A stretch of DNA of 64,000 nucleotides from Paludibacter sp. (GCA_034927265.1 JAYFQH010000026.1:2220-66219), one strand, 5' to 3'. Shown: positions 16,165 through 58,334, counted from the stretch's first letter. Program-made: numbers and translations. Notes: generated from the sequence alone by a model not told the origin.

Positions 16165-18462
16165 TTAAAACGGATATCCTATGGCGATATTCAGCATCAG
16201 ATTTTCTCTTCTCCAATCGGCTTTGAAAGGATTGATTTCATTAACCACCCAACGATCGGCAGATGGCAACCAGGGCTTACGCAGCGGTGTTGCCAGATCG
16301 AAGCGCAACACAAAGAAGGATACATCCAGTCGTAGTCCGATGCCGGAACCCACTGCCATTTCGCTCAGAAAACTGTTAAGCCGGAACGGATTGCCCAGAT
16401 TTACCGGATTGGAAGCCTGTAGCCATACATTGCCCGCATCCACAAAGAGAGCTCCTTTCAGAAAACTGTAGATGTCGAAACGGTATTCAGCATTAATTTC
16501 TATTTTTATATCACCACCTGTTTGCAGAAATCCCCCAGTAGTCTGCTGCTGATAATCGCCAGGTCCAAGAGAATTAATTGCAAAGGCTCTTACACTGTTG
16601 GGACCACCGCTGAAGAATTGCCGGCTGTAGGGTAGGGAGGCCGAATTGCCAAAGGCTTTCCCTGCTCCGGCGTAGAAACGCATTGCCAGCTTATCTTTGT
16701 TGCCAATATTTATGTAGGTTCTGGCATCGGCATCCAGCCGTACAAACTGTGAATACACCATTCCGAGGATAGTGCCGGGATGATCCGGTGACGGATGGTT
16801 GCCGCTAATGCTGTTGATCAGCGAAAAGAGCCCTCCTGCCGATTCGGCACGCAACTGAAGAAAATGCTGAGCAACTTTCTCTGTTGTTGATGGATCATTA
16901 TACGTGAATGAATAGCTCTCGCCCGCTACAAATTGTTCATCATAGCTTTTTTTCAGGTAAGGATTTGCTACCAGCAAGGCCTTAAAATCATCCGATTCGT
17001 TACTCAGCGATGTGTTGCTGATATTTATCGGTGTCAGTTCATGGGTTATCCGGGCATTTTTCTTCCATTTATATCCATAACTGAACAACAAAGAGTTCAT
17101 GTCGAAATAGTTGACTCTTTTGATGTAATTATAGGCAAAAGCAAAACGCGTTTGAGGAGTGTATATATTGTGTGATGGTTTCAGTTGGAAAGGAACCAAT
17201 AGCCGGGGGAAGGTGAGTTCCAGCTGGGGATTGAAGGTGTAGGAGAACAGACCTTTGTTGATTGCATTAAGCTGTGCCTCGAACGATCCGGCCATGTTGA
17301 GTTTCAGTTGTTCAGAACCGCCGAAGGTGTTGCGGTTCAGCAGACTCACATTCATCCGCGGACCTGTATAGTTATTTGATTTTGTTACGAGTTCCATTTC
17401 TGCCCTGAAAGTGTTGATGGGGAGTGGGGTCAGTAGGATGGCAACATCCAGCAAACCTGTGCTGTCGTTGTCGGTGAACTTCATCTGTACAAATTTGAAA
17501 TTACCCATCGACATCAGGCGATTCAGGGTGATGTTGTGGTCGCGGCGGTTGTAGAGCTCATCTTTTTTAAGATAAACTGCCCGCAGAATGACTTCGGGAC
17601 GAATAACCGGTTTGTTTTTATTCCTCAGGAAAATCACGTCGTCAAATAGAGTGGTATCCTGACTTGTGTTTACATTATCAAGTGAGTAATGCTGGTCGAT
17701 TGTGATCCGTCCGATACGCTGTGTATGTAGCGCATTGGCATGTGTTTCTGTTTTCAGGCCAAGTCGCAATGTCATCTCTTCGTTAGTCGTGTCGGCTTCA
17801 AAGATCAGATAATCAGGGTTGAAATAGAAATATCCGCTGTCTTTCAATATCTCATCGATGCGGTTTCTTTCGTTTTGCAGGTTTTCGAGCCGGTAAACAT
17901 CACCTTTTTTAATCACAGCGTTTTTCTTCTCCGATAGAATGAGTCCGTTGAGAGTACTGTCAGCAATTACAATCTGATAATTTTTTATTTTATATGGTTG
18001 ATGAATGTGCGAAGTGTAAATAATTTTTGCGGTATGCTCTTTTTCCTTAATCTCATAGGTCGTTTTACTGTTAAAGATTCCGAGGTTGAATAATTTTGCA
18101 TCAATAATAGCAGCAGTAACCGATGGTTTCACATCGCTTAATAACACCGGGGCTTCCCCGTTTTTCCTCATCCATTGCCTGATTTTTCCCTTTGGATTTT
18201 CTCCGGTACTCATATACAACCATAACCTGGGCCGCATGCCTAATACACTGCTGTTGGGTTGCGGTCGTACAGCCTCATCAACCACCGGTTTGATTTGCCG
18301 GGCATCCACTTTCTCATCACTCACAAGATTCGTCACTGCACCAACATACAACTTTTCGTCCGCAGGCAGGTGTTTCGTTCCGCTGCAACCGGATAGGAGG
18401 AGCAGGAGAACAAATAGTTGAGAGTTGAAAGTTGAGAGTTGAGAGTTATTTTTTTTCAACAT
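16165..18462 (-). CDS. tamL: Omp85-family translocation and assembly module outer-membrane protein (TamA/TamL type, lipidated)
   Basis: The C-terminal Omp85/surface antigen barrel has GGPNSVRAF, EINAEYRF and FVDAGNVW motifs. A lipobox LLLSGC is present, and the gene lies immediately downstream of tamB. The start ATG lies inside the 3' end of the four-helix-bundle gene. Confidence 0.8.
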   Translation of the reverse strand: MLKKNNSQLSTFNSQLFVLLLLLSGCSGTKHLPADEKLYVGAVTNLVSDEKVDARQIKPVVDEAVRPQPNSSVLGMRPRLWLYMSTGENPKGKIRQWMRKNGEAPVLLSDVKPSVTAAIIDAKLFNLGIFNSKTTYEIKEKEHTAKIIYTSHIHQPYKIKNYQIVIADSTLNGLILSEKKNAVIKKGDVYRLENLQNERNRIDEILKDSGYFYFNPDYLIFEADTTNEEMTLRLGLKTETHANALHTQRIGRITIDQHYSLDNVNTSQDTTLFDDVIFLRNKNKPVIRPEVILRAVYLKKDELYNRRDHNITLNRLMSMGNFKFVQMKFTDNDSTGLLDVAILLTPLPINTFRAEMELVTKSNNYTGPRMNVSLLNRNTFGGSEQLKLNMAGSFEAQLNAINKGLFSYTFNPQLELTFPRLLVPFQLKPSHNIYTPQTRFAFAYNYIKRVNYFDMNSLLFSYGYKWKKNARITHELTPINISNTSLSNESDDFKALLVANPYLKKSYDEQFVAGESYSFTYNDPSTTEKVAQHFLQLRAESAGGLFSLINSISGNHPSPDHPGTILGMVYSQFVRLDADARTYINIGNKDKLAMRFYAGAGKAFGNSASLPYSRQFFSGGPNSVRAFAINSLGPGDYQQQTTGGFLQTGGDIKIEINAEYRFDIYSFLKGALFVDAGNVWLQASNPVNLGNPFRLNSFLSEMAVGSGIGLRLDVSFFVLRFDLATPLRKPWLPSADRWVVNEINPFKADWRRENLMLNIAIGYPF
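18417..18447. repeat. Tandem heptamer array GTTGARA x4.4 (left arm of the cassette)
   Basis: Reads gttgaga gttgaaa gttgaga gttgaga gtt. It is the reverse complement of the TTCAACT-type units at 18830-18864, and is translated as the NSQLSTFNSQL part of the TamL signal-peptide n-region. Confidence 0.85.
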
Positions 18463-18805
18463 TATTTTTTGATGTTTTTACAATACTTGCTAATAAGCGG
18501 ATGAGTTCATCGCAATTATTATGTATTGAAGTATATGTTTTATCATTTAAATAATCACTGTCTTTTAAAAGCATTAGCCAATATTCTGTTTCGTTTGCTT
18601 CCTTCAGAGCTATATTCATTTTGCTGATAAAATCAGCTTTCGATTGAGCATGTTCAGCCTCCTTTATCAAGGCACCAATAGCCGTTCCACTCCGCAACAT
18701 TTGTTTCGATAAAATAAATTCATGTTGCTCTTTTGTCAAATACTTGTATGCCTTTACTATCCGTAGTGCAAATGCATACGATTTCTCTCCAACAATACTC
18801 TTCAT
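18446..18805 (-). CDS. Four-helix-bundle protein (23S rRNA intervening-sequence protein family)
   Basis: 119 aa. The pattern YAFALRIVKAYKYL...RSGTAIGALIKEAEHAQSKADFISKMNIALKEANETEYWLMLL is characteristic of the S23p/IVS four-helix-bundle family. Confidence 0.85.
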   Translation of the reverse strand: MKSIVGEKSYAFALRIVKAYKYLTKEQHEFILSKQMLRSGTAIGALIKEAEHAQSKADFISKMNIALKEANETEYWLMLLKDSDYLNDKTYTSIHNNCDELIRLLASIVKTSKNNVEKK

Positions 18806-18829
18806 AATTATAGGTTTTAAATATTAATT

Positions 18830-18885
18830 CTCAACTTTCAACTTTCAACTTTCAACTTTCAACTCTCCACTCTCCACTCCCCACT
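18830..18885. repeat. Tandem heptamer array, 8 units (CTCAACT, TTCAACT x4, CTCCACT x2, CCCCACT); right arm of the cassette
   Basis: Exact period 7, read directly. The last unit overlaps the tamB TAG stop codon (18884-18886). Confidence 0.9.
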
Positions 18886-21800
18886 ATTCCGGTTTCCTGA
18901 ACAACTCCTTCCACCAGTTAAAATCCCGCACATACACTATTCCTGCACCTGTTTCAACCAATTGCCCTTCAATAACCCCTTCATACTGATTATTTCTGAA
19001 CCCTTTCAGGCGATAACGTCCATCCTCAGTGAGTTTATATTCTACGGTTACATCCCCCGCAATGTTGCCCGCCGAATTTTGCTTTGCTTTTTCTCCTTCC
19101 ACATCCACCGATCCTCCAATTTCTACTGTCAAACGGTTGTTGAACAATTCTTTTTTCAGTCCGACTTCTACCTGTGTCCTGCCTTCGGCATTTCCGCTCT
19201 GATAATCTTCGTAGGATTGAACATCGAAATTCAATTCGACACCCGGCACAAAACCCGAACTGAAACGGTTCAGTTGTTCTGTCAGGAAACTGCTCACTGT
19301 GGAACGCAGCAGTGCTGAAGTACCTGCCGACTCCGATTGAAGTGGGTTTTCCTGTACAAACCTGCCCAGCACTAACAGGGCAAAAACCTGCTTGTTCAGT
19401 GCCGAGGGATCTTCGTTGAGCAAATTCAGCTTTTGTTGCATGGCGCCTGATAAGATGCCTTTGTCCTCAGGCAGTAACTGAATTTCGAAACTGATTTCCG
19501 GCTGCATCATTTCACCCCGCATTTTCAGTAACACAACAAAAGGATATTGTTGCTTGTATCCTGCCTGCTCAGCATTGGTGAGTCCAGCCATCTGTTCTGC
19601 CACCAGATTATAGGGCGCTGTGCGGACCATGTAACTTGCATTGATATTGATGTTGGCATCCATCGGATCGCCATTCCATACAATGGTACTGCCGGGAACT
19701 ATCCCGAATTTCTTTTTGATGATGGATTCCAGCGAAACGAGATAACTGCCTTCGTTTACTTCATAAGTGCCGGTCAGACTCATCTTTCCGCTTCTGTCCA
19801 TGGTCAGACTCAGCGCGGCATTTCCTTTTACCACCAGCGAATCGGAGGATGCGGGATCCATGAATAAGCGCAGGGTGGCATCCTTGTCGACTTCAATAAC
19901 CGACGACAGATCGAAACCGCTGAAACCTGCGACAGCTGTTTCTTGCTGTAAATATTCCTTTTTAGTGCTGTCGGTAAAAACGACGATGTCTTCTCCCTTA
20001 TAGGTGGTGAGTTGTTCTTCGGGCACCACGAAACTGAAACGGGAGCCCGCCTTCATCTTTAAACGGGCACGTACAACCGGCACCGAAAGCGGACCGCTGA
20101 TGTCAATGTCACTATCGATGATCATTTTTCCGTAGAACAAATCATTATCTTTTGCTGTGGTGTTGAACAAAAGGAAATCTTTTGAATTTACATTCAGATC
20201 AAAACGAAAATCAGAGAATTCTTTCATCTTTATTGATCCGTCAACCACAGCTTTTTGTTGATTGACATCCCGGATGGTAAAGGCGTTGAAATAAATCCCG
20301 TCAGTTCTCAGCGTGATACTTTCATCTTTCAGAAAGATGGTATTATTCAGGAAAGCAGGTTTCATCTCTGCGTTTTTGAAAGTCAGGTTTCCGTTGATCT
20401 TCGGATGATTCGTATTTCCTTCCACCACAAATTTTCCACCGACAAGACCTGATGCCTGCGAAAGTTGTCCCATCGAAAATGCTTCGATGGTTTTCATTGA
20501 GAGGGAGTGCAATACGGCATCAACTTTAATGGCATTGTCTTCGCCATTCAGGAGATAATAACCGTTGGCTGACAAATCGTTTCCTTCGCCGGTCAGACTC
20601 AGGTCTATATCGACTCTGTCGGTAACGGGGTTTGAAGCTTTTAAACTCAGATTGCCGACAGGGATACCCTGCACTGCTAACTGCGCGATTTCAGCATCAG
20701 CAGTGATACTGTAACCGCTACTCATTTTTTTTAGCAGGGCATTCGCTTCCAACCGACCTTTCAGCAGGTCATTGTTCTTAAAATGCGAGTCGTCAATGGA
20801 GGATAGATGTGCGCTAAGCTGATTGTCGGCCACTTTTCCTTTCAGGCGAATGTTATCCACCTGCATTTGTCCAAAGGAAAACGATGAAGTGAAAAGTTGA
20901 TAATTAAGTGCACCGGCATCGGATTTTAATTCAAATCCGATGTCTTTTATCTCATTGTTGCCATAAATGAGCTTTTGAATGCCTGCATTTATGTTGAGTG
21001 CTTCTTTCGAACCGTCATAATTTCCATGGATAACCCCGGGAATAAATTCATGTAAGTCAGGTAAAAATTCAGCAATAAAGGGATGGTTGTATGGTTGTAT
21101 ATCGAACTGAAATACTATATTGGTATATTTCTTTGCCACCGGTTGAGTGTCGGTCAATGCAAAATACCGGTTGATAAACTGAGTGCCCCATTCTGCCAGT
21201 GCCAACGGTGAAAGATTCCCGCTATAGCTGAGAGCAAGCAAATCGCTGCGGAGTTTCAGTTCGTTTTTTTGCTTCTGCTGGGTGAGGTCCACAATGATGG
21301 AGTCGAGCAGATATGCTTTCCCATTTAAGCCCAGATTTAGTTCGTTGATTTCCGCATGTAGCATATTCAGGTCAAAGCCCTTTCCCTCTGCACTGGCATT
21401 GAGCGACAGCTGACCATAGGATTTGTCTTTCATCAAACTTCCCAGATCAAAGGGTGTCAGTTGTAGATCAACATTATATCTTTCACCTTTAGCCAGCGAG
21501 GCTGTCATCAGCGCATTACCATAAGAGCTAAATAAGCCTGCCGAACTTTCAAAATCACTGATACCTCCATAAAAATCAACATTCAGGCGGATGTTATCCG
21601 GTAGTTCGATGCTTTCAGGAATGAGGTTTCCGGCCATCATCAGCAAATCCTTTTTATTCGACTGTATGGTAAGATTCGGAAAATCAAAATGTGCCTTTTC
21701 CATATCAGGCAGGCCAGAGATGTGAAAGCTCGTATTTAATACAGTATTACGACCTGCTTTTACGATAAGGTTTTTTCCTTTCAGATTATTTATTTGTCCG

Positions 21801-22867
21801 TCAATACTACCTTTCAGGGTCGTAATATGCGCTTTGTTTTTGAAGAAACCAATGGTTGCCGGCATCGGACTGAAATATACAATATCAGCATTGCTAAAAC
21901 CCGATTGCCTGATGTAGGCTTTGATTTTTAGTTGTCCTAATGAATCCGCAATCGATGACAAAGAAGCAAATTGCAGTTGCACCTCACCATCAATAAAGGA
22001 GGTTGAGGTATTTGCCTTCAACGGTGCCAGAGTAATCGAATGGGCATCCATTTTAAAGATTGTTTCAAAACGGGTAATGGTGAAATTGTTTTGATCAGTG
22101 GCACTGAACTGCTTAACCGTGAATTCCTTCTTTTCAGTACTGTACAAGATATCCCTGAGTTCTAAATTTAGCTTCCTGAATTGTAGATTGCCTGCATCAA
22201 AAACTTTTTTGTTCGCAGGATTTCTCTCCGTTTGATAAGTGATAGCATTATCTTTCAACGATATTTCATTCAATTTAATACAGAACTCACGGGTGTTGAT
22301 GGAAATTCCCTTCACTCCGAGCCGATAGATGGTTGCTGAGGTATATAGCTGGTTATAAACATCTTCATACAATATGCGCGAGTTCCTTATATTAAGTTGA
22401 TCCAGATTAAATGCCCATGGGTTTGACTGGGCATTTGTGCTAGTGTCGCTACTGAAAGCTGTGAGCAGAAACTGATAGTTAAACAGCGAATCTGTTGGGG
22501 TATTGTACACTTTAACAATCGCCTTATCCAAATAGAGATGACGAACATTGATATGATTATTGAAAACATCTTTCAGTGAGAAGTTCAATCTGGCTTCACC
22601 GGCATAAAGCAGCGTATCCTTCTGAAGGTCTTCGATAAAAACACCCTCAAGCGACAATGCATTTGGAAATGAAATACCCAGGTGCTCAATTTCAACGCGG
22701 GTGTGGGTTTTGTTGCTGATGTATCCTGTAGCGAAACTAACCAAAGCATTCTGAACAGATGGAAGTTGAATAATACCGGCAAGGAGAATGAAAAAAAACA
22801 CGAAAACTGCAACAACCCAAAGGATTGCTTTGAAAATTCTTTTAAATATTTGAAGCGCTTTATGCAT
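18884..22867 (-). CDS. tamB: Translocation and assembly module protein TamB (AsmA-like/DUF490 family)
   Basis: 1327 aa with an N-terminal membrane anchor (AILWVVAVFVFFFILLAGII), a long beta-rich repetitive body and a conserved C-terminal domain. It is adjacent to the Omp85 partner. Confidence 0.8.
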   Translation of the reverse strand: MHKALQIFKRIFKAILWVVAVFVFFFILLAGIIQLPSVQNALVSFATGYISNKTHTRVEIEHLGISFPNALSLEGVFIEDLQKDTLLYAGEARLNFSLKDVFNNHINVRHLYLDKAIVKVYNTPTDSLFNYQFLLTAFSSDTSTNAQSNPWAFNLDQLNIRNSRILYEDVYNQLYTSATIYRLGVKGISINTREFCIKLNEISLKDNAITYQTERNPANKKVFDAGNLQFRKLNLELRDILYSTEKKEFTVKQFSATDQNNFTITRFETIFKMDAHSITLAPLKANTSTSFIDGEVQLQFASLSSIADSLGQLKIKAYIRQSGFSNADIVYFSPMPATIGFFKNKAHITTLKGSIDGQINNLKGKNLIVKAGRNTVLNTSFHISGLPDMEKAHFDFPNLTIQSNKKDLLMMAGNLIPESIELPDNIRLNVDFYGGISDFESSAGLFSSYGNALMTASLAKGERYNVDLQLTPFDLGSLMKDKSYGQLSLNASAEGKGFDLNMLHAEINELNLGLNGKAYLLDSIIVDLTQQKQKNELKLRSDLLALSYSGNLSPLALAEWGTQFINRYFALTDTQPVAKKYTNIVFQFDIQPYNHPFIAEFLPDLHEFIPGVIHGNYDGSKEALNINAGIQKLIYGNNEIKDIGFELKSDAGALNYQLFTSSFSFGQMQVDNIRLKGKVADNQLSAHLSSIDDSHFKNNDLLKGRLEANALLKKMSSGYSITADAEIAQLAVQGIPVGNLSLKASNPVTDRVDIDLSLTGEGNDLSANGYYLLNGEDNAIKVDAVLHSLSMKTIEAFSMGQLSQASGLVGGKFVVEGNTNHPKINGNLTFKNAEMKPAFLNNTIFLKDESITLRTDGIYFNAFTIRDVNQQKAVVDGSIKMKEFSDFRFDLNVNSKDFLLFNTTAKDNDLFYGKMIIDSDIDISGPLSVPVVRARLKMKAGSRFSFVVPEEQLTTYKGEDIVVFTDSTKKEYLQQETAVAGFSGFDLSSVIEVDKDATLRLFMDPASSDSLVVKGNAALSLTMDRSGKMSLTGTYEVNEGSYLVSLESIIKKKFGIVPGSTIVWNGDPMDANININASYMVRTAPYNLVAEQMAGLTNAEQAGYKQQYPFVVLLKMRGEMMQPEISFEIQLLPEDKGILSGAMQQKLNLLNEDPSALNKQVFALLVLGRFVQENPLQSESAGTSALLRSTVSSFLTEQLNRFSSGFVPGVELNFDVQSYEDYQSGNAEGRTQVEVGLKKELFNNRLTVEIGGSVDVEGEKAKQNSAGNIAGDVTVEYKLTEDGRYRLKGFRNNQYEGVIEGQLVETGAGIVYVRDFNWWKELFRKPE

Positions 22868-30522: not shown

Positions 30523-30572
30523 GATCTTTTTTATAAATATAAACGTAATAAGTACATAGGGCACAAAAGAAA

Positions 30573-30616
30573 GTGATGAGTGATAAGTGATAAGTGATGT
30601 CACTTATCACTTATCG
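30573..30616. repeat. Heptamer-repeat hairpin: GTGATRA x3.7 facing TTATCAC x2; perfect 16 bp stem with a 2 nt centre
   Basis: 30582-30597 gataagtgataagtga and 30600-30615 tcacttatcacttatc are exact reverse complements. It lies between the stop of the 308 aa gene (30641) and the start of the next gene (30522). Confidence 0.9.
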
Positions 30617-45850: not shown

Positions 45851-45927
45851 AGTTGAAAGTTGAGAGTTGAAAATTTCATTCATCATTCAGTTGTCATTCT
45901 CCATTTTCAACTTTTTTCAACTTTCAA
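45851..45927. repeat. Cargo-less inverted heptamer-repeat element (AGTTGAA/AGTTGAG units facing TTTCAAC units, 30 nt spacer)
   Basis: The left arm 45851-45873 (agttgaaagttgagagttgaaaa) pairs with the right arm 45904-45927 (ttttcaacttttttcaactttcaa) as 11 bp and 8 bp helices with a small internal loop. The units are the same as those flanking the four-helix-bundle gene. Confidence 0.8.
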
Positions 45928-45938
45928 TTATTATAATC

Positions 45939-47726
45939 ATGAAAATCAGGTTATTTCTTTTTTTTGCGTTCATATGTAACGCTTTGTTCTCTCAAACTGT
46001 TTATTGGAACGAAAACACCCGGCTTATTCCGTGGCGTTTGCCCCTTGTGAACAACAGGTCGTCCGTCACTTACGAAGACATCAACGGCGACGGTAAACCC
46101 GATATCATCCGCACGACCATACTCGATGGGATACCTGTCATCTGGATTGATGACGACCAGGACATGAAGGAAGGCGATATGGAAGGCGACACAGACAACG
46201 ATTGTTTGCTTATCGACAGAAATAAAGATGGTGTTTTCGGCGGGCCGGAAGATCTTTCGGTCGACTGGCTTGATACGGATGGCGACGGCATAGCAGATAT
46301 TCAGCTCGTGATCAGCAACGGAAGCCTCGACGCTCGTTATGGCTATGATTTCACGTCCGATTATATGTGTGTGATTGATACGGAAAAAGATGATATCAAA
46401 AACTTTGTCGACTGGAATCAGTTAGTCCTGCGTTGCTGGGAACATAACGGACATTCCAATTTTTTTCAGGATTATCATGGAAATACCTTGTTTTTGAAAA
46501 TGCACGCTTCCAGTTTCCGCATCAATGATACACGGTACAACTGGGAAAATCCTTTTATTTTCTACGACCACGATCAGGATCAGTTATCGGAGATGGCCAT
46601 CCGTATGCTTGATATTCCATATTTCAGGCCTAAGCCCGGTAAAAAACCGGACGAACGTTTTAAAAACGTAAACGAAAATATCGATGTTATTTACAGCCAG
46701 CGGATCAGTTGGGTAAGCATTGCATGGGATATGGACAACGACAACGGACAGGGAAACGAATTCGATCTGGATATGACCTTGCATTTCAGAGGAAAAGGAT
46801 TCGACTATTCCGATCAAATACATGCTTTTAAAAATCTCCGGGGACTTCCGGAAGCTGATAGGTTCCTTTACGATCCGCGTTGGCGACAAATGAACGAATT
46901 GATTTATCCTGATGAAAAAGTATCGTACGATATGACTTTTCAAAAGGGAGAATGGGATTATTGCTGGTTTACATTTGATGAGGACGATGACTGTAACCGC
47001 TGGGAACGTGTGGAATTGTACCAGCCTCTGAATCTGTTCAAAGCTGGCAGCCGGAATAACGGATTAGATAACAACCAACAGGCCGATGCCGTGGGGGATC
47101 GGGGTGAGTTTGATAGCGACAATTCAGGCAAAGGAAAACTTTATTTCTCGCCTTTCGACGGCCGGATACACCTCTACGGCGCTGAATGGGGAGCCTGGAG
47201 AATAGATCAGAATGCTGCTTATTTTCAGGGTTACGGCGGCTTATATCCTCCGATGAAAGTCAAAGAAAGACTATATGCCAGCCCTGATTCATGGGCTACG
47301 ATCAAATACGAAGATACCGATAACAACGGGTTCTTCGACCTGATACGTTACGATTTAGATGGAGACACGATTTTTGAAGAAACCGTTTCACTCATCGAAC
47401 TGGGCATCGACGATCAAGCTCCTTTGTATGATCCGGCAAACATGAATTACAACGATTTTACAAAACTTTTTGATAAAGCTACGAAAGAAATACAACAACG
47501 GGCAATAGATGTACAGGCCGTAGCCAGGAAATACGGATTGAACACGTCCTGGTATGCTTTTTGGAAACAACCGCGTACAAAATTCGAACAATATTCCTAC
47601 GGTTACTGGCTGACATTTTATATCTACCGGGATTTGAGGCACATGGCGAATGTGAATAAGAACGAAGAATTAGTTCGGAAACTAGATGTTGCGTATTATT
47701 CGGGAAACTGGAAGACGTTGTATTAG
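45939..47726 (+). CDS. Secreted hypothetical protein with FG-GAP/DxDxDG-type calcium-binding motifs
   Basis: The ATG at 45939 gives the signal peptide MKIRLFLFFAFICNALFSQ; the six-frame start at 45867 reads through the repeat. Motifs DINGDGKPD, DTDNDCLLIDRNKDG, DTDGDGIAD and DTDNNGFFD are present. I recognised no catalytic family. Confidence 0.6.
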   Translation: MKIRLFLFFAFICNALFSQTVYWNENTRLIPWRLPLVNNRSSVTYEDINGDGKPDIIRTTILDGIPVIWIDDDQDMKEGDMEGDTDNDCLLIDRNKDGVFGGPEDLSVDWLDTDGDGIADIQLVISNGSLDARYGYDFTSDYMCVIDTEKDDIKNFVDWNQLVLRCWEHNGHSNFFQDYHGNTLFLKMHASSFRINDTRYNWENPFIFYDHDQDQLSEMAIRMLDIPYFRPKPGKKPDERFKNVNENIDVIYSQRISWVSIAWDMDNDNGQGNEFDLDMTLHFRGKGFDYSDQIHAFKNLRGLPEADRFLYDPRWRQMNELIYPDEKVSYDMTFQKGEWDYCWFTFDEDDDCNRWERVELYQPLNLFKAGSRNNGLDNNQQADAVGDRGEFDSDNSGKGKLYFSPFDGRIHLYGAEWGAWRIDQNAAYFQGYGGLYPPMKVKERLYASPDSWATIKYEDTDNNGFFDLIRYDLDGDTIFEETVSLIELGIDDQAPLYDPANMNYNDFTKLFDKATKEIQQRAIDVQAVARKYGLNTSWYAFWKQPRTKFEQYSYGYWLTFYIYRDLRHMANVNKNEELVRKLDVAYYSGNWKTLY

Positions 47727-57515: not shown

Positions 57516-58283
57516 ATGATTCCCCACTACCAAAAGAAAGCCCGTCCCGAAAAGGACATGATATTTGGCATACGTGCTGTAATTGAAGCCATTCAGGCCG
57601 GAAAAGACATTGATAAGATACTGCTTCGCAGGGATATGTCGAGCGAACTGGCACGCGAGCTTTTTGCTATACTCGAAGGAATGAACGTTCCTGTACAAAA
57701 AGTTCCGCTCGAAAAGCTCAATCGCATCACCATGAAAAACCATCAGGGAGTGATTGCCTTTATTTCGCCGGTGACTTATCAACGTATTGAGGACATCATT
57801 CCCGGAATATATGAGGAAGGGCGTGTCCCGTTTATTGTGGTGCTCGACAACGTAACTGATGTCCGAAACTTCGGAGCTATTGCCCGTACCTGCGAATGTG
57901 CGGGTGTAGATGCTATCGTGGTTCCCATGAAAGGTGGTGCCGCTTTGAATGCTGATGCTGTGAAAACCTCTGCCGGAGCTTTGTTGAAAATACCCGTTTG
58001 TCGTGAAGAAAGCATTTCTAATGCTCTGAAATTTCTCTCTTTTTCAGGCATAAAGCTCATCGCTGCTACTGAGAAAACAGATCAGAACTATACGAAGGTG
58101 GATATGAAAGATCCGGTGGCTATTGTCATGGGTTCAGAGGATGAAGGCATTGCCCCGGAGCACTTACGTCTTTGTAATGAACTGGTGAGTATACCTCTTG
58201 CCGGAACCATTGAATCGCTCAATGTGTCGGTTGCGGCAGGAGTGCTGATTTATGAAGTGATCAGACAACGTTTAATCGTTTAA
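57516..58283 (+). CDS. rlmB: TrmH-family 23S rRNA (guanosine-2'-O)-methyltransferase RlmB
   Basis: MIFGIRAVIEAIQAGKDI N-terminal SpoU-substrate-binding motif. SpoU methylase motifs are present: LDNVTDVRNFGAIARTC, IVMGSEDEGI and IPLAGTIESLNVSVAAGVLIYE. Confidence 0.88.
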   Translation: MIPHYQKKARPEKDMIFGIRAVIEAIQAGKDIDKILLRRDMSSELARELFAILEGMNVPVQKVPLEKLNRITMKNHQGVIAFISPVTYQRIEDIIPGIYEEGRVPFIVVLDNVTDVRNFGAIARTCECAGVDAIVVPMKGGAALNADAVKTSAGALLKIPVCREESISNALKFLSFSGIKLIAATEKTDQNYTKVDMKDPVAIVMGSEDEGIAPEHLRLCNELVSIPLAGTIESLNVSVAAGVLIYEVIRQRLIV

Positions 58284-58334
58284 TCGTTGAACTGTTTAAT
58301 CGATTCAACAATTCAACAATTCAACAGTTCAACA
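58270..58334. repeat. Composite tandem octamer repeats: GTTTAATC x3 and ATTCAACA x4, with a 9 bp inverted pair (gttgaactg / cagttcaac)
   Basis: Read directly. GTTTAATC at 58270, 58278 and 58294. ATTCAACA units at 58303-58334. 58286-58294 is the reverse complement of 58326-58334. The array spans the rlmB stop and the leader of the pseudouridine synthase gene. Confidence 0.75.

Follow-up and report, generated by a model that had tools for sequence, protein, structure and literature searches.

A four-helix-bundle gene between inverted heptamer arrays at the tamB-tamL junction of Paludibacter sp. and its array-flanked homologues in at least nine phyla

Small four-helix-bundle (4HB) proteins of the PF05635/TIGR02436 family have so far been described in only two contexts, the intervening sequences (IVSs) of 23S rRNA and, for the related protein Avd, diversity-generating retroelements (DGRs). 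The IVS of Coxiella, for example, is 428-444 nucleotides (nt) long, has a 28-bp terminal stem, carries an S23p open reading frame (ORF) and is cleaved by RNase III (PMC4990558). Avd and PF05635 have also been treated elsewhere (PMC10053308), and PF05635 has been listed as CRISPR-associated (PMC10910872). Tandem heptamers have a literature of their own, which includes papers citing the short tandemly repeated repetitive (STRR) sequences of cyanobacteria. The TAACTGA repeats of Beggiatoaceae, Cyanobacteria and Bacteroidetes were reported with no mention of the 4HB family and with no transfer mechanism found (PMC4679880). Here, we analysed a stretch of 64,000 nt from Paludibacter sp. (GCA_034927265.1 JAYFQH010000026.1:2220-66219; hereafter the window), in which a 119-residue 4HB gene lies between tamB and tamL and is bracketed by inverted heptamer arrays. 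An earlier note, made from the sequence of the window, had proposed that this gene is the cargo of a small mobile or recombining element family and that its association with such arrays was formally undescribed. Our literature search likewise found no paper linking PF05635/TIGR02436 to heptamer arrays in the collection searched, which is incomplete, so that an earlier description is possible.

We surveyed the surroundings of 80 loci of close homologues (56-77% identity, one genome per species) together with three metagenomic loci, 83 in all, and counted as flanking any array of period 7 or 14 at most 200 nt from the ORF. The hosts were mostly Bacteroidota, with further loci from Chlorobiota, Desulfobacterales, Gammaproteobacteria, Spirochaetota, Acidobacteriota, Cyanobacteriota, Clostridia and Campylobacterota. 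Heptamer arrays flanked 82 of the 83 close homologues on one side or both, as against about 11% expected at background density. On reading, nearly all loci presented the same picture, with tandem heptamers upstream of the gene and their reverse complement downstream. The near flanks held 149 arrays of period 7 or 14 in 32.7 kb, compared with 105 in 363 kb farther off, which is an enrichment of about 16-fold. The two arms of a cassette are complementary and their match is locus-specific, because the local alignment scores within a locus (median 18) exceeded those between loci (median 9) and those of a same-geometry control of equally spaced random points from these loci (median 7.5), with Mann-Whitney p values of about 1e-25 and 1e-36. 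In 62 of 77 loci the score lay above the 99th percentile of the control. Distant homologues (41-55% identity, from plasmids) had arrays in 10 of 11 cases, in Nostoc (four), Anabaena, Euhalothece, Treponema, Monoglobus, Bernardetia and Chondrinema, with units that include AATTCAA, ACTGGTC, AGGTCGG, AAGTCGC, AATTCGC, AATTAGG and AGTGATT. One phage copy of the gene had no arrays. The expectation that other copies of the gene would be flanked alike was thus borne out among close and distant homologues, and the association with arrays spans at least nine phyla, down to 41% protein identity. This stereotyped architecture recasts PF05635/TIGR02436 as the cargo of a discrete genetic element.

In the window, tamB, a purine-rich arm (R-arm), a spacer, the 4HB ORF, a pyrimidine-rich arm (Y-arm) and tamL follow one another on the minus strand (Table 1), and the element spans 470 nt (18416-18885). 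Read in gene sense, the R-arm consists of AGTGGGG, AGTGGAG twice, AGTTGAA four times and AGTTGAG, and the Y-arm of AACTCTC, AACTCTC, AACTTTC, AACTCTC and a final AACT. On the plus strand, 18416-18447 reads as 4.6 units of AGTTGAG/AGTTGAA and 18829-18885 as 8.1 units of TCTCAAC/TTTCAAC/CTCCACT. The arms are inverted copies of each other, with 91% complementarity over 32 nt or 80% over 50 nt. The double-unit pattern AGTTGARAGTTGAR, allowing up to two mismatches, occurs 15 times in the window versus 2.2 +/- 1.5 times in shuffled sequence, where 0 of 100 shuffles reached 15, and all except two of the matches lie inside the cassette arrays or at 45851-45929. The earlier note had placed the 119-residue gene between inverted heptamer arrays at the tamB-tamL junction, with one array touching the tamB stop codon. 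Tandem Repeats Finder and the profile matches confirmed this arrangement, with coordinates correct to 1 nt, and the tamB stop TAG (18884-18886) indeed overlaps the first heptamer of the R-arm.

Neither a promoter nor a terminator of the gene's own was evident at the arms. The spacer at 18806-18828 is too short for a usable promoter. A sigma-70-like sequence, TTGAGA-16-TATAAT (11/12 positions, 18807-18834 on the minus strand), ends 1 nt before the ATG, and we rejected it as the gene's own promoter, the scan not having been made for Bacteroidota promoters. A consensus scan of 18300-19000 found no intrinsic terminator at the arms, the single terminator-like site being on the plus strand within the ORF, and no Rfam family reached its gathering score in the whole window. 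As a separate observation, R-arm units of the AATTGAC type, present at many loci, contain the sigma-70 -35 hexamer TTGACA/TTGAGA once per unit; the promoter type of Bacteroidota differs.

Table 1. Features of the 4HB cassette, its neighbouring genes and the cargo-less repeat elements in the window
Feature	Position	Strand	Evidence
tamB	18884..22867	-	1327 aa; PF04357 TamB 2.6e-67; C-terminus ...NWWKELFRKPE*
Upstream R-arm (purine-rich)	18829..18885	-	8.1 heptamers, Tandem Repeats Finder period 7
AT-rich spacer, 23 nt, from R-arm to cargo ATG	18806..18828	-	sequence
Cargo ORF, 119-aa 4HB protein, TIGR02436/PF05635, S23p/Avd fold	18446..18805	-	profile matches
Downstream Y-arm (pyrimidine-rich)	18416..18447	-	4.6 heptamers, period 7, 92% matches
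tamL (lipoprotein)	16165..18462	-	NF052279 lipo_TamL 775 bits, cutoff 400
Cargo-less hairpin, AGTTGAR/TTCAACT units, 30-nt loop	45851..45930		predicted RNA fold -30.7 kcal/mol, z = -8.2
Cargo-less hairpin, AAGTGAT/TCACTTA heptamers	30571..30615		predicted RNA fold -23.3 kcal/mol, z = -6.8
Octamer variant, CGTTTAAT/TGTTGAAT/CGTTGAAC-type versus ATTCAACA	58269..58334		weaker hairpin, fold z = -3.1

The cargo is a conserved four-helix-bundle protein under purifying selection. PF05635 is its only Pfam match (7.9e-30, 103.7 bits against a cutoff of 33.8), and TIGR02436 was matched with 110.7 bits against a cutoff of 24. Matching sequences are numerous, with 10,208 clusters at 50% identity reaching E <= 0.001 and 3,200 reaching E <= 1e-10. 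The closest solved relative is BT_0352 (PDB 2RLD, five chains; E = 5e-40). The AlphaFold model of the monomer (pLDDT 91.5) shows four long helices, an up-down bundle in the size class of the family (about 110-120 residues), and it superimposes on 2RLD (61% identity) with a template-modelling (TM) score of 0.84-0.93, on Xanthomonas Xcc0516/S23p (2GSC) with a TM score of about 0.84, and on the DGR protein Avd (4DWL, 8UB7) with a TM score of about 0.75. The Xanthomonas protein has been reported as a homopentamer (PMC4990558). In comparisons with orthologues whose proteins are 94-95% identical, the ratio of non-synonymous to synonymous substitution rates (dN/dS) was 0.08-0.17. For the copy at a different locus (L003; 82% identical), the non-synonymous difference before correction was 0.11 and the synonymous difference was saturated (0.77). 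We dropped a role in anti-phage defence, since the cargo matched 0 families among the PADLOC models.

The arms follow common rules across the family. In a common register, the unit consensus is A-R-T-K-R-A-N, i.e. A-[A/G]-T-[T/G]-[G/A]-A-N; the window has AGTTGAR and AGTGGAG, and TAACTGA, rotated to ACTGATA, departs from the consensus at two positions. The window units do not match what we take to be the canonical STRR1-3 units. Arms have a median length of 31-32 nt, 52% of them contain 4.0-5.0 units, and their lengths peak at about 4.5 units (about 31 nt), while the period-6 repeats of the background fall monotonically (187/13/1/1). The median gap is 14 nt from the R-arm to the ATG and 5.5 nt from the stop codon to the Y-arm, which overlaps the stop codon in 19 of 68 loci, and the whole cassette measures about 445 nt. 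In many cases the R-arm reaches right up to the ATG, and a promoter would not fit between the two. The median purine fraction is 0.67 in the 5' arm and 0.31 in the 3' arm, and the composition is reversed in only two arrays per side. This R-first polarity characterises the hairpin, not the orientation of the gene, because a hairpin reads the same on both strands. The cargo lies on the same strand as both neighbours in 45 of the 57 loci at which both flanks could be scored. Variant layouts were [R][Y]-gene-[Y] in L033, L036 and Treponema, [R]-gene-[R][Y] in L011, L037 and L083, tandem cassettes in L036 and a reversed case in L050. The arms are a simple sequence signature by which cassettes can be found.

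With the published heptamer repeats (PMC4679880) the arms share tandem units of 7 nt in two to six, sometimes many, copies, insertions and deletions in 7-nt steps, an intergenic position that often ends a few nt before a start codon, an overlapping phylogenetic range, and stops in all frames read one way with open frames read the other way. In contrast to STRR and TAACTGA repeats, which were described as direct arrays without an associated gene, the cassette arrays are inverted pairs around one gene family. The copies of the gene on cyanobacterial plasmids carry cyanobacteria-style units such as ACTGGTC, AGGTCGG and AATTCGC. A specific gene may therewith be linked to the STRR/TAACTGA heptamer repeats of Cyanobacteria and Beggiatoaceae.

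Two further observations concern long arrays. On a Leptonemataceae chromosome (L023), about 38 AATTGAG units stand upstream of the gene and a long AATTGAT array downstream, direct rather than inverted. The four P0076 contigs shown (L174-L177) each start exactly 65 nt upstream of the gene, which indicates that these assemblies break in the heptamer array. The same assembly problem was reported for Elizabethkingia in the TAACTGA study (PMC4679880).

The claim of the earlier note that the cassette had been inserted between tamB and tamL gained support from related junctions. We fetched 80 loci of TamL relatives and could place the tamB end in 72. Instead of the gene being present everywhere without repeats, 29 junctions were empty, with a gap of at most 110 nt between the TamB homology and TamL residue 27, which accommodates the signal peptide only and leaves no room for an insert. 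In the five empty junctions that we read, the tamB stop overlaps the tamL ATG (as ATGA or TAATG) or directly adjoins it, and coupling by overlapping stop and start is the ancestral tamB-tamL arrangement. Junctions filled with the 4HB gene were confined to the nearest relatives (L085, L001 and L002), with differing unit numbers and variants. In L084 and L086, the next nearest relatives (TamL 76% identical) and the closest ones that lack the 4HB gene, the same junction holds a different, non-coding insert of about 450-520 nt. Its heptamer arms are AGTGATG/AGTGATA x5 and TCACTCA/TCACTTA x4-5, it has an outer 27-nt inverted repeat (GTAGAGACrTGGCATGCC...), and it is followed by a two-unit remnant of a CTCAACT arm beside the hydrophobic region of TamL. 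Set against the 4HB-filled relatives, this is an exchange of cassettes at one site. The interior of the insert (L084 1017-1573, L086 1372-2001) contains many small hairpins and GGGGTTGCTTCGCTTCGCTCGCAATGACG-like repeats, and its only Rfam matches were chance C/D-box matches on the AGTGATG repeats.

Elsewhere the gene occupies unrelated junctions, in keeping with the proposed small mobile or recombining element family. The L003 copy (82% identical protein) separates a histidine kinase gene from that of its response regulator, and others lie between ABC ATPase and permease genes, in type I restriction-modification (R-M) operons, in a resistance-nodulation-division (RND) operon and between cas2 and cas1. 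In L005, L024 and L054, a gene for tRNA-Arg, tRNA-Val and tRNA-Arg, respectively, stands no more than about 40 nt from the Y-arm, with the strand shared in L054 alone. Two proteins from one type of junction (ABC ATPase/permease or type I R-M) are not the closest relatives of one another, which points to independent insertions or exchanges and away from a single ancient event. Vertical inheritance at these recurrent junctions was rejected, as the ABC and R-M junction proteins are closer to copies elsewhere. The arms travel with the gene, because unit distance tracks protein distance (Mantel r = 0.24, reached by 0 of 2000 permutations), also across phyla: proteins 69-81% identical in different phyla share AATTGAA/AGTTGAA units, and L012 (Desulfobacterales) and L007 (Pseudohongiella), which are 81% identical, both have AATTGAA. 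Like integron cassettes and miniature inverted-repeat transposable elements (MITEs), the cassette is small, promoterless and presumably host-transcribed, has imperfect foldable inverted repeats, and is exchanged at one site. It differs from them in having no attC/IntI and no transposase, two-sided tandem heptamers and essentially one protein cargo. Phages were rejected as the main carriers, as there were only two phage records (one was read and had no arrays) and three viral contigs (two with arrays). Hitch-hiking of the cassette between genes accounts for the 'association' of the family with R-M, CRISPR and transporter operons, and it may explain why PF05635 has been listed among CRISPR-associated domains (PMC10910872). 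On plasmid pANACY.01 of Anabaena cylindrica (L182), a 4HB gene with GTAAAAA-type arrays lies between cas2 and cas1 on the opposite strand.

The window also contains copies of the arms that enclose no cargo, as the earlier note had stated. The hairpin at 45851-45930 has the same unit as the cassette and occupies a divergent intergenic (promoter) region, its Y-arm ending about 10 nt before the ATG at 45940. The other two elements are variants. The hairpin at 30571-30615 lies between two co-directional minus-strand genes and shares its unit with the non-4HB insert of L084 and L086, and the element at 58269-58334 looks related to the heptamer hairpins, with units of 8 nt. The latter lies between plus-strand genes, with the upstream stop codon in its first unit and an ATG about 7 nt after its last unit. 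With the cassette, two heptamer hairpins and the octamer variant, the 64 kb of the window contain four elements of this kind. Hairpins that lack a cargo and have the same unit or one differing by a single mismatch were also found near the cassettes of L021, L045, L048, L051 and L064. A supposed further cassette, L110, was rejected, as its 525-nt spacing results from two separate hairpins around an ordinary secreted-protein gene.

We favour, with somewhat better than even confidence, the interpretation that the element is a promoterless, horizontally spread, operon-resident 4HB cassette that corresponds, within operons, to the ORF-bearing 23S rRNA IVSs, because its geometry, size and cargo match theirs. 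Like the ORF-bearing IVSs of Leptospira, Coxiella, Brucella and Xanthomonas, it has a PF05635 cargo, a similar length (about 445 nt compared with 428-444 nt in Coxiella) and terminal inverted repeats that can form a stem of about 28-32 bp around the ORF, with an S23p ORF in the loop and a size in the range of 430-760 nt. The distribution is sporadic in both, which suggests horizontal transfer (PMC4990558). Unlike the IVSs, which sit in helix 9, 25 or 45 of 23S rRNA, the cassette stands between protein-coding genes. Its arms are tandem heptamer arrays in place of the unique inverted repeats of the Coxiella IVS, and they act on the reading frames of the neighbours, with a stop upstream and a start downstream. 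The fold predicted for the co-transcript pairs the arms into one bulged stem of about 50 bp around the ORF (minimum free energy, MFE, -129 kcal/mol, z = -4.8), consistent with the suggestion of the earlier note that the arrays could pair into a long stem with the ORF in the loop. The two cargo-less heptamer hairpins of the window gave clearer predicted folds still (z = -8.2 and -6.8). Its comparison with the geometry of 23S rRNA IVSs held for the stem of at least 20 bp, the S23p-family ORF in the loop and the size; it did not hold for the location, which is tamB/tamL and not 23S rRNA.

According to this interpretation as an IVS-like operon cassette, an insertion at tamB/tamL with the layout of R-arm, short spacer, 4HB ORF and Y-arm would be transcribed by polymerase reading through the host operon. 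Within that transcript, its arms would pair as a stem of 30-50 bp, a plausible substrate of RNase III, the cleavage of which could release or insulate the cargo mRNA. The 5' arm, with stops in three frames, would terminate translation of the upstream gene, and the 3' arm, open in all frames, would allow the downstream gene to restart, so that stops on entry and open frames on exit would limit the harm to the neighbours. In the window, the AGTTGAA run of the R-arm has TGA in all three frames, and the Y-arm, which starts within the TAA that ends the cargo, has no stop in any of them. Across the family, stops in all three frames were present in 42 of 66 upstream arms, the frequency of which is explained by most units containing TGA or TAA, and 47 of 67 downstream arms had no stop in any frame. 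Spread would probably occur by horizontal transfer together with insertion or exchange at existing heptamer arrays, which would serve as portable homology. The stand-alone cassettes are a plausible source population for the IVS elements.

Several points weigh against this interpretation. Read-through transcription and cleavage by RNase III are steps that we infer from the sequence. The best alignments of the arms in 69 loci contained 90 mismatches of the G-U type and 90 of the A-C type, which gives no sign of selection on the sense RNA as opposed to DNA, in a test that is weakened by register slippage. Because these mismatches are balanced at 90:90 and excision by RNase III is likewise deduced, the comparison with IVSs is an analogy of geometry and cargo. 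A stem alone would leave the unit sequence free, and the units are restricted to about 32 variants. No rRNA was found in any of the five related loci screened with Rfam, and an rRNA context was rejected, the 23S motif matches in L010, L017, L031 and L078 being chance matches without an Rfam rRNA. Two proteins found in identical form, P0104 on 23 contigs and P0076 on 12, had the same neighbours throughout, and recent transposition was rejected on the basis of this constancy. Finally, the start of TamL through the arm, described below, is a local arrangement, as the majority of downstream genes start at an ATG of their own beyond the arm.

The restricted units and the fixed arm length suggest recognition by some factor, and two of the alternatives would make the cargo itself that factor. 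One operates at the DNA level, by analogy with doublets of repetitive extragenic palindromic (REP) sequences forming hairpins (REPINs) and REP-associated tyrosine transposases (RAYTs). Hairpins of folded single-stranded DNA would replicate, the 4HB protein would make, move or maintain them, and template switching or gene conversion, not selection on RNA, would preserve the complementarity of the arms. We regard this as rather unlikely, even with a considerable list of likenesses: a conserved gene between two inverted arms as RAYT genes stand between REPs, the dispersal of the same repeat as gene-less hairpins, both in the window and near the five cassettes listed above, repeat types that differ by gene lineage, and descent that is largely vertical within a species, with lateral transfer on occasion, as for REPINs and RAYTs (PMC3116915). 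The symmetry of the mismatch types would also fit, the restricted consensus suggests sequence recognition, the mixed layouts [R][Y]-gene-[Y] and [R]-gene-[R][Y] resemble recombination between cassette and hairpin, and cassettes were exchanged at one site (L084/L086). The link between RAYTs and REPINs was itself first inferred from such a flanking pattern (PMC3116915). However, RAYTs are IS200-like HUH tyrosine transposases and REPs are unique 16-20-mers, whereas the repeats here are tandem heptamers and the cargo is a 119-residue helical bundle with no known catalytic motif, be it of a nuclease or a recombinase, the closest functional relative of which, Avd, is a cofactor of reverse transcriptase and RNA. 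Moreover, arms 400 nt apart would not extrude a cruciform in duplex DNA, and we found neither transposition intermediates nor signs of recent movement, the identical proteins on 12-23 contigs having constant neighbours. The other alternative resembles the trp RNA-binding attenuation protein (TRAP), with a putative pentameric ring of the cargo binding five motifs of single-stranded RNA spaced by 7 nt in the arrays, in competition with the stem, which would result in autoregulation and control of the flanking genes. The clustering of arms at 4-5 units, equal to five cores such as AACT-N3-AACT, would suit five subunits, as would the reported homopentamer of Xcc0516/S23p (PMC4990558), the five chains of 2RLD and the Avd chains A-E retrieved in the fold search. 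Avd chains are also part of solved DGR ribonucleoprotein structures (8UB7), and the conserved unit consensus and the co-variation of heptamer type with protein point the same way. Yet co-inheritance explains the co-variation equally well, 28-32 bp is also the length that an RNase III stem needs, the units within a single arm are often mixed (AATTGAC/AATGGAT), and one single-strand specificity cannot bind both arms, so that we consider this model unlikely as well, slightly more so than the DNA-level one. Nearby cargo-less hairpins with matching units fit either of the two, and simple loss of the cargo too. That the TIGR02436 protein and the heptamer hairpins form one co-evolving system, REPIN/RAYT-like or TRAP-like, in which a pentamer recognises motifs spaced by 7 nt, is a speculative proposal to which we assign a low probability. 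If it were true, the heptamer repeats of Cyanobacteria (STRR), Beggiatoaceae and Bacteroidota would originate from or be maintained by cassettes, and the ORF-bearing rRNA IVS would be the special case of a cassette that landed in 23S rRNA.

Two further explanations were considered. The heptamer hairpins could be generic intergenic elements of these genomes, such as terminators or stabilisers like REP or STRR, and the 4HB gene would have come to lie among them by chance. In 0.5 Mb of unselected Bacteroidales DNA, tandem repeats most often have a period of 7, cargo-less hairpins occur between genes and after operons, and Beggiatoaceae, Cyanobacteria and Bacteroidetes are known to have heptamers ahead of start codons (PMC4679880). 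Nevertheless, such coincidence is close to refuted by the presence of arrays at 82 of 83 loci where about 11% would be expected, by the tight bracketing, with the Y-arm reaching into the stop codon at 19 of 68 loci, and by an association that extends over at least nine phyla and to 41% identity, with similar proteins sharing units across phyla; we consider it very improbable. We give even less credence to the gene being a remnant or an accessory gene (Avd) of a DGR. The fold is shared (TM score of about 0.75), with five chains per solved assembly in Avd (4DWL; 8UB7), and there is a weak match to the Avd family NF033474. That match, however, reaches 20.6 bits where the cutoff is 80. The gene is flanked by tamB and tamL, without a reverse transcriptase or a pair of template and variable repeats there, and the named neighbours and the read flanks of related loci are ordinary operon genes, with no reverse transcriptase among these. 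Unlike Avd, the cassette gene is stand-alone in unrelated operons.

The cassette also bears on the start of TamL. In the tamL frame (18355-18462, minus strand), the sole in-frame start before the lipobox is the ATG at 18460-18462, within the last codons of the cargo, and there is none between the Y-arm and the lipobox. As this is the only such start, TamL is predicted to begin MLKKNNSQLSTFNSQLFVLLLLLSGC, and the Y-arm would be translated as part of its signal peptide, reading NNSQLSTFNSQL. The start of TamL is likewise predicted inside the 3' end of the cargo in L001, L002 and L085, and the gene caller chose the same start in L001. In the empty-site relatives, TamL starts with MTRSILNKYF..., the tamB stop overlapping that ATG. 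The response regulator of L003 is a possible further case of a start at the 3' end of the cargo through the Y-arm. A portable start codon as a feature of the family was rejected, since most other downstream genes have their own ATG past the Y-arm. The arms can flag neighbouring starts and stops that gene callers have mis-set, as for TamL here, as well as assembly breaks. A set of eight proteins (P0124, P0172, P0177, P0199, P0213, P0224, P0229 and P0240) is 150-180 residues long, with homology beginning at residue 40-57, possibly because the ORF call ran through a stop-free arm with TGG-type units, which would have added a repeat-encoded N-terminal extension.

Other repeats occur at the same junction, and tamB-tamL seems, from the sequences compared, to be a hot spot for small repeats. 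The relatives L088, L092, L093, L105 and L120 (CCCCTAAAGGGG-type) and L124, L141 and L144 (GGGCTAAAGCCC-type) carry 100-250 nt of unrelated REP-like palindromic repeats between the two genes, some of which are apparently translated as a long N-terminal extension of TamL. In L095 and L155, about four direct AATTATG/AATTATT heptamers without an inverted partner stand right before the TamL start, like the published TAACTGA-type arrays upstream of start codons.

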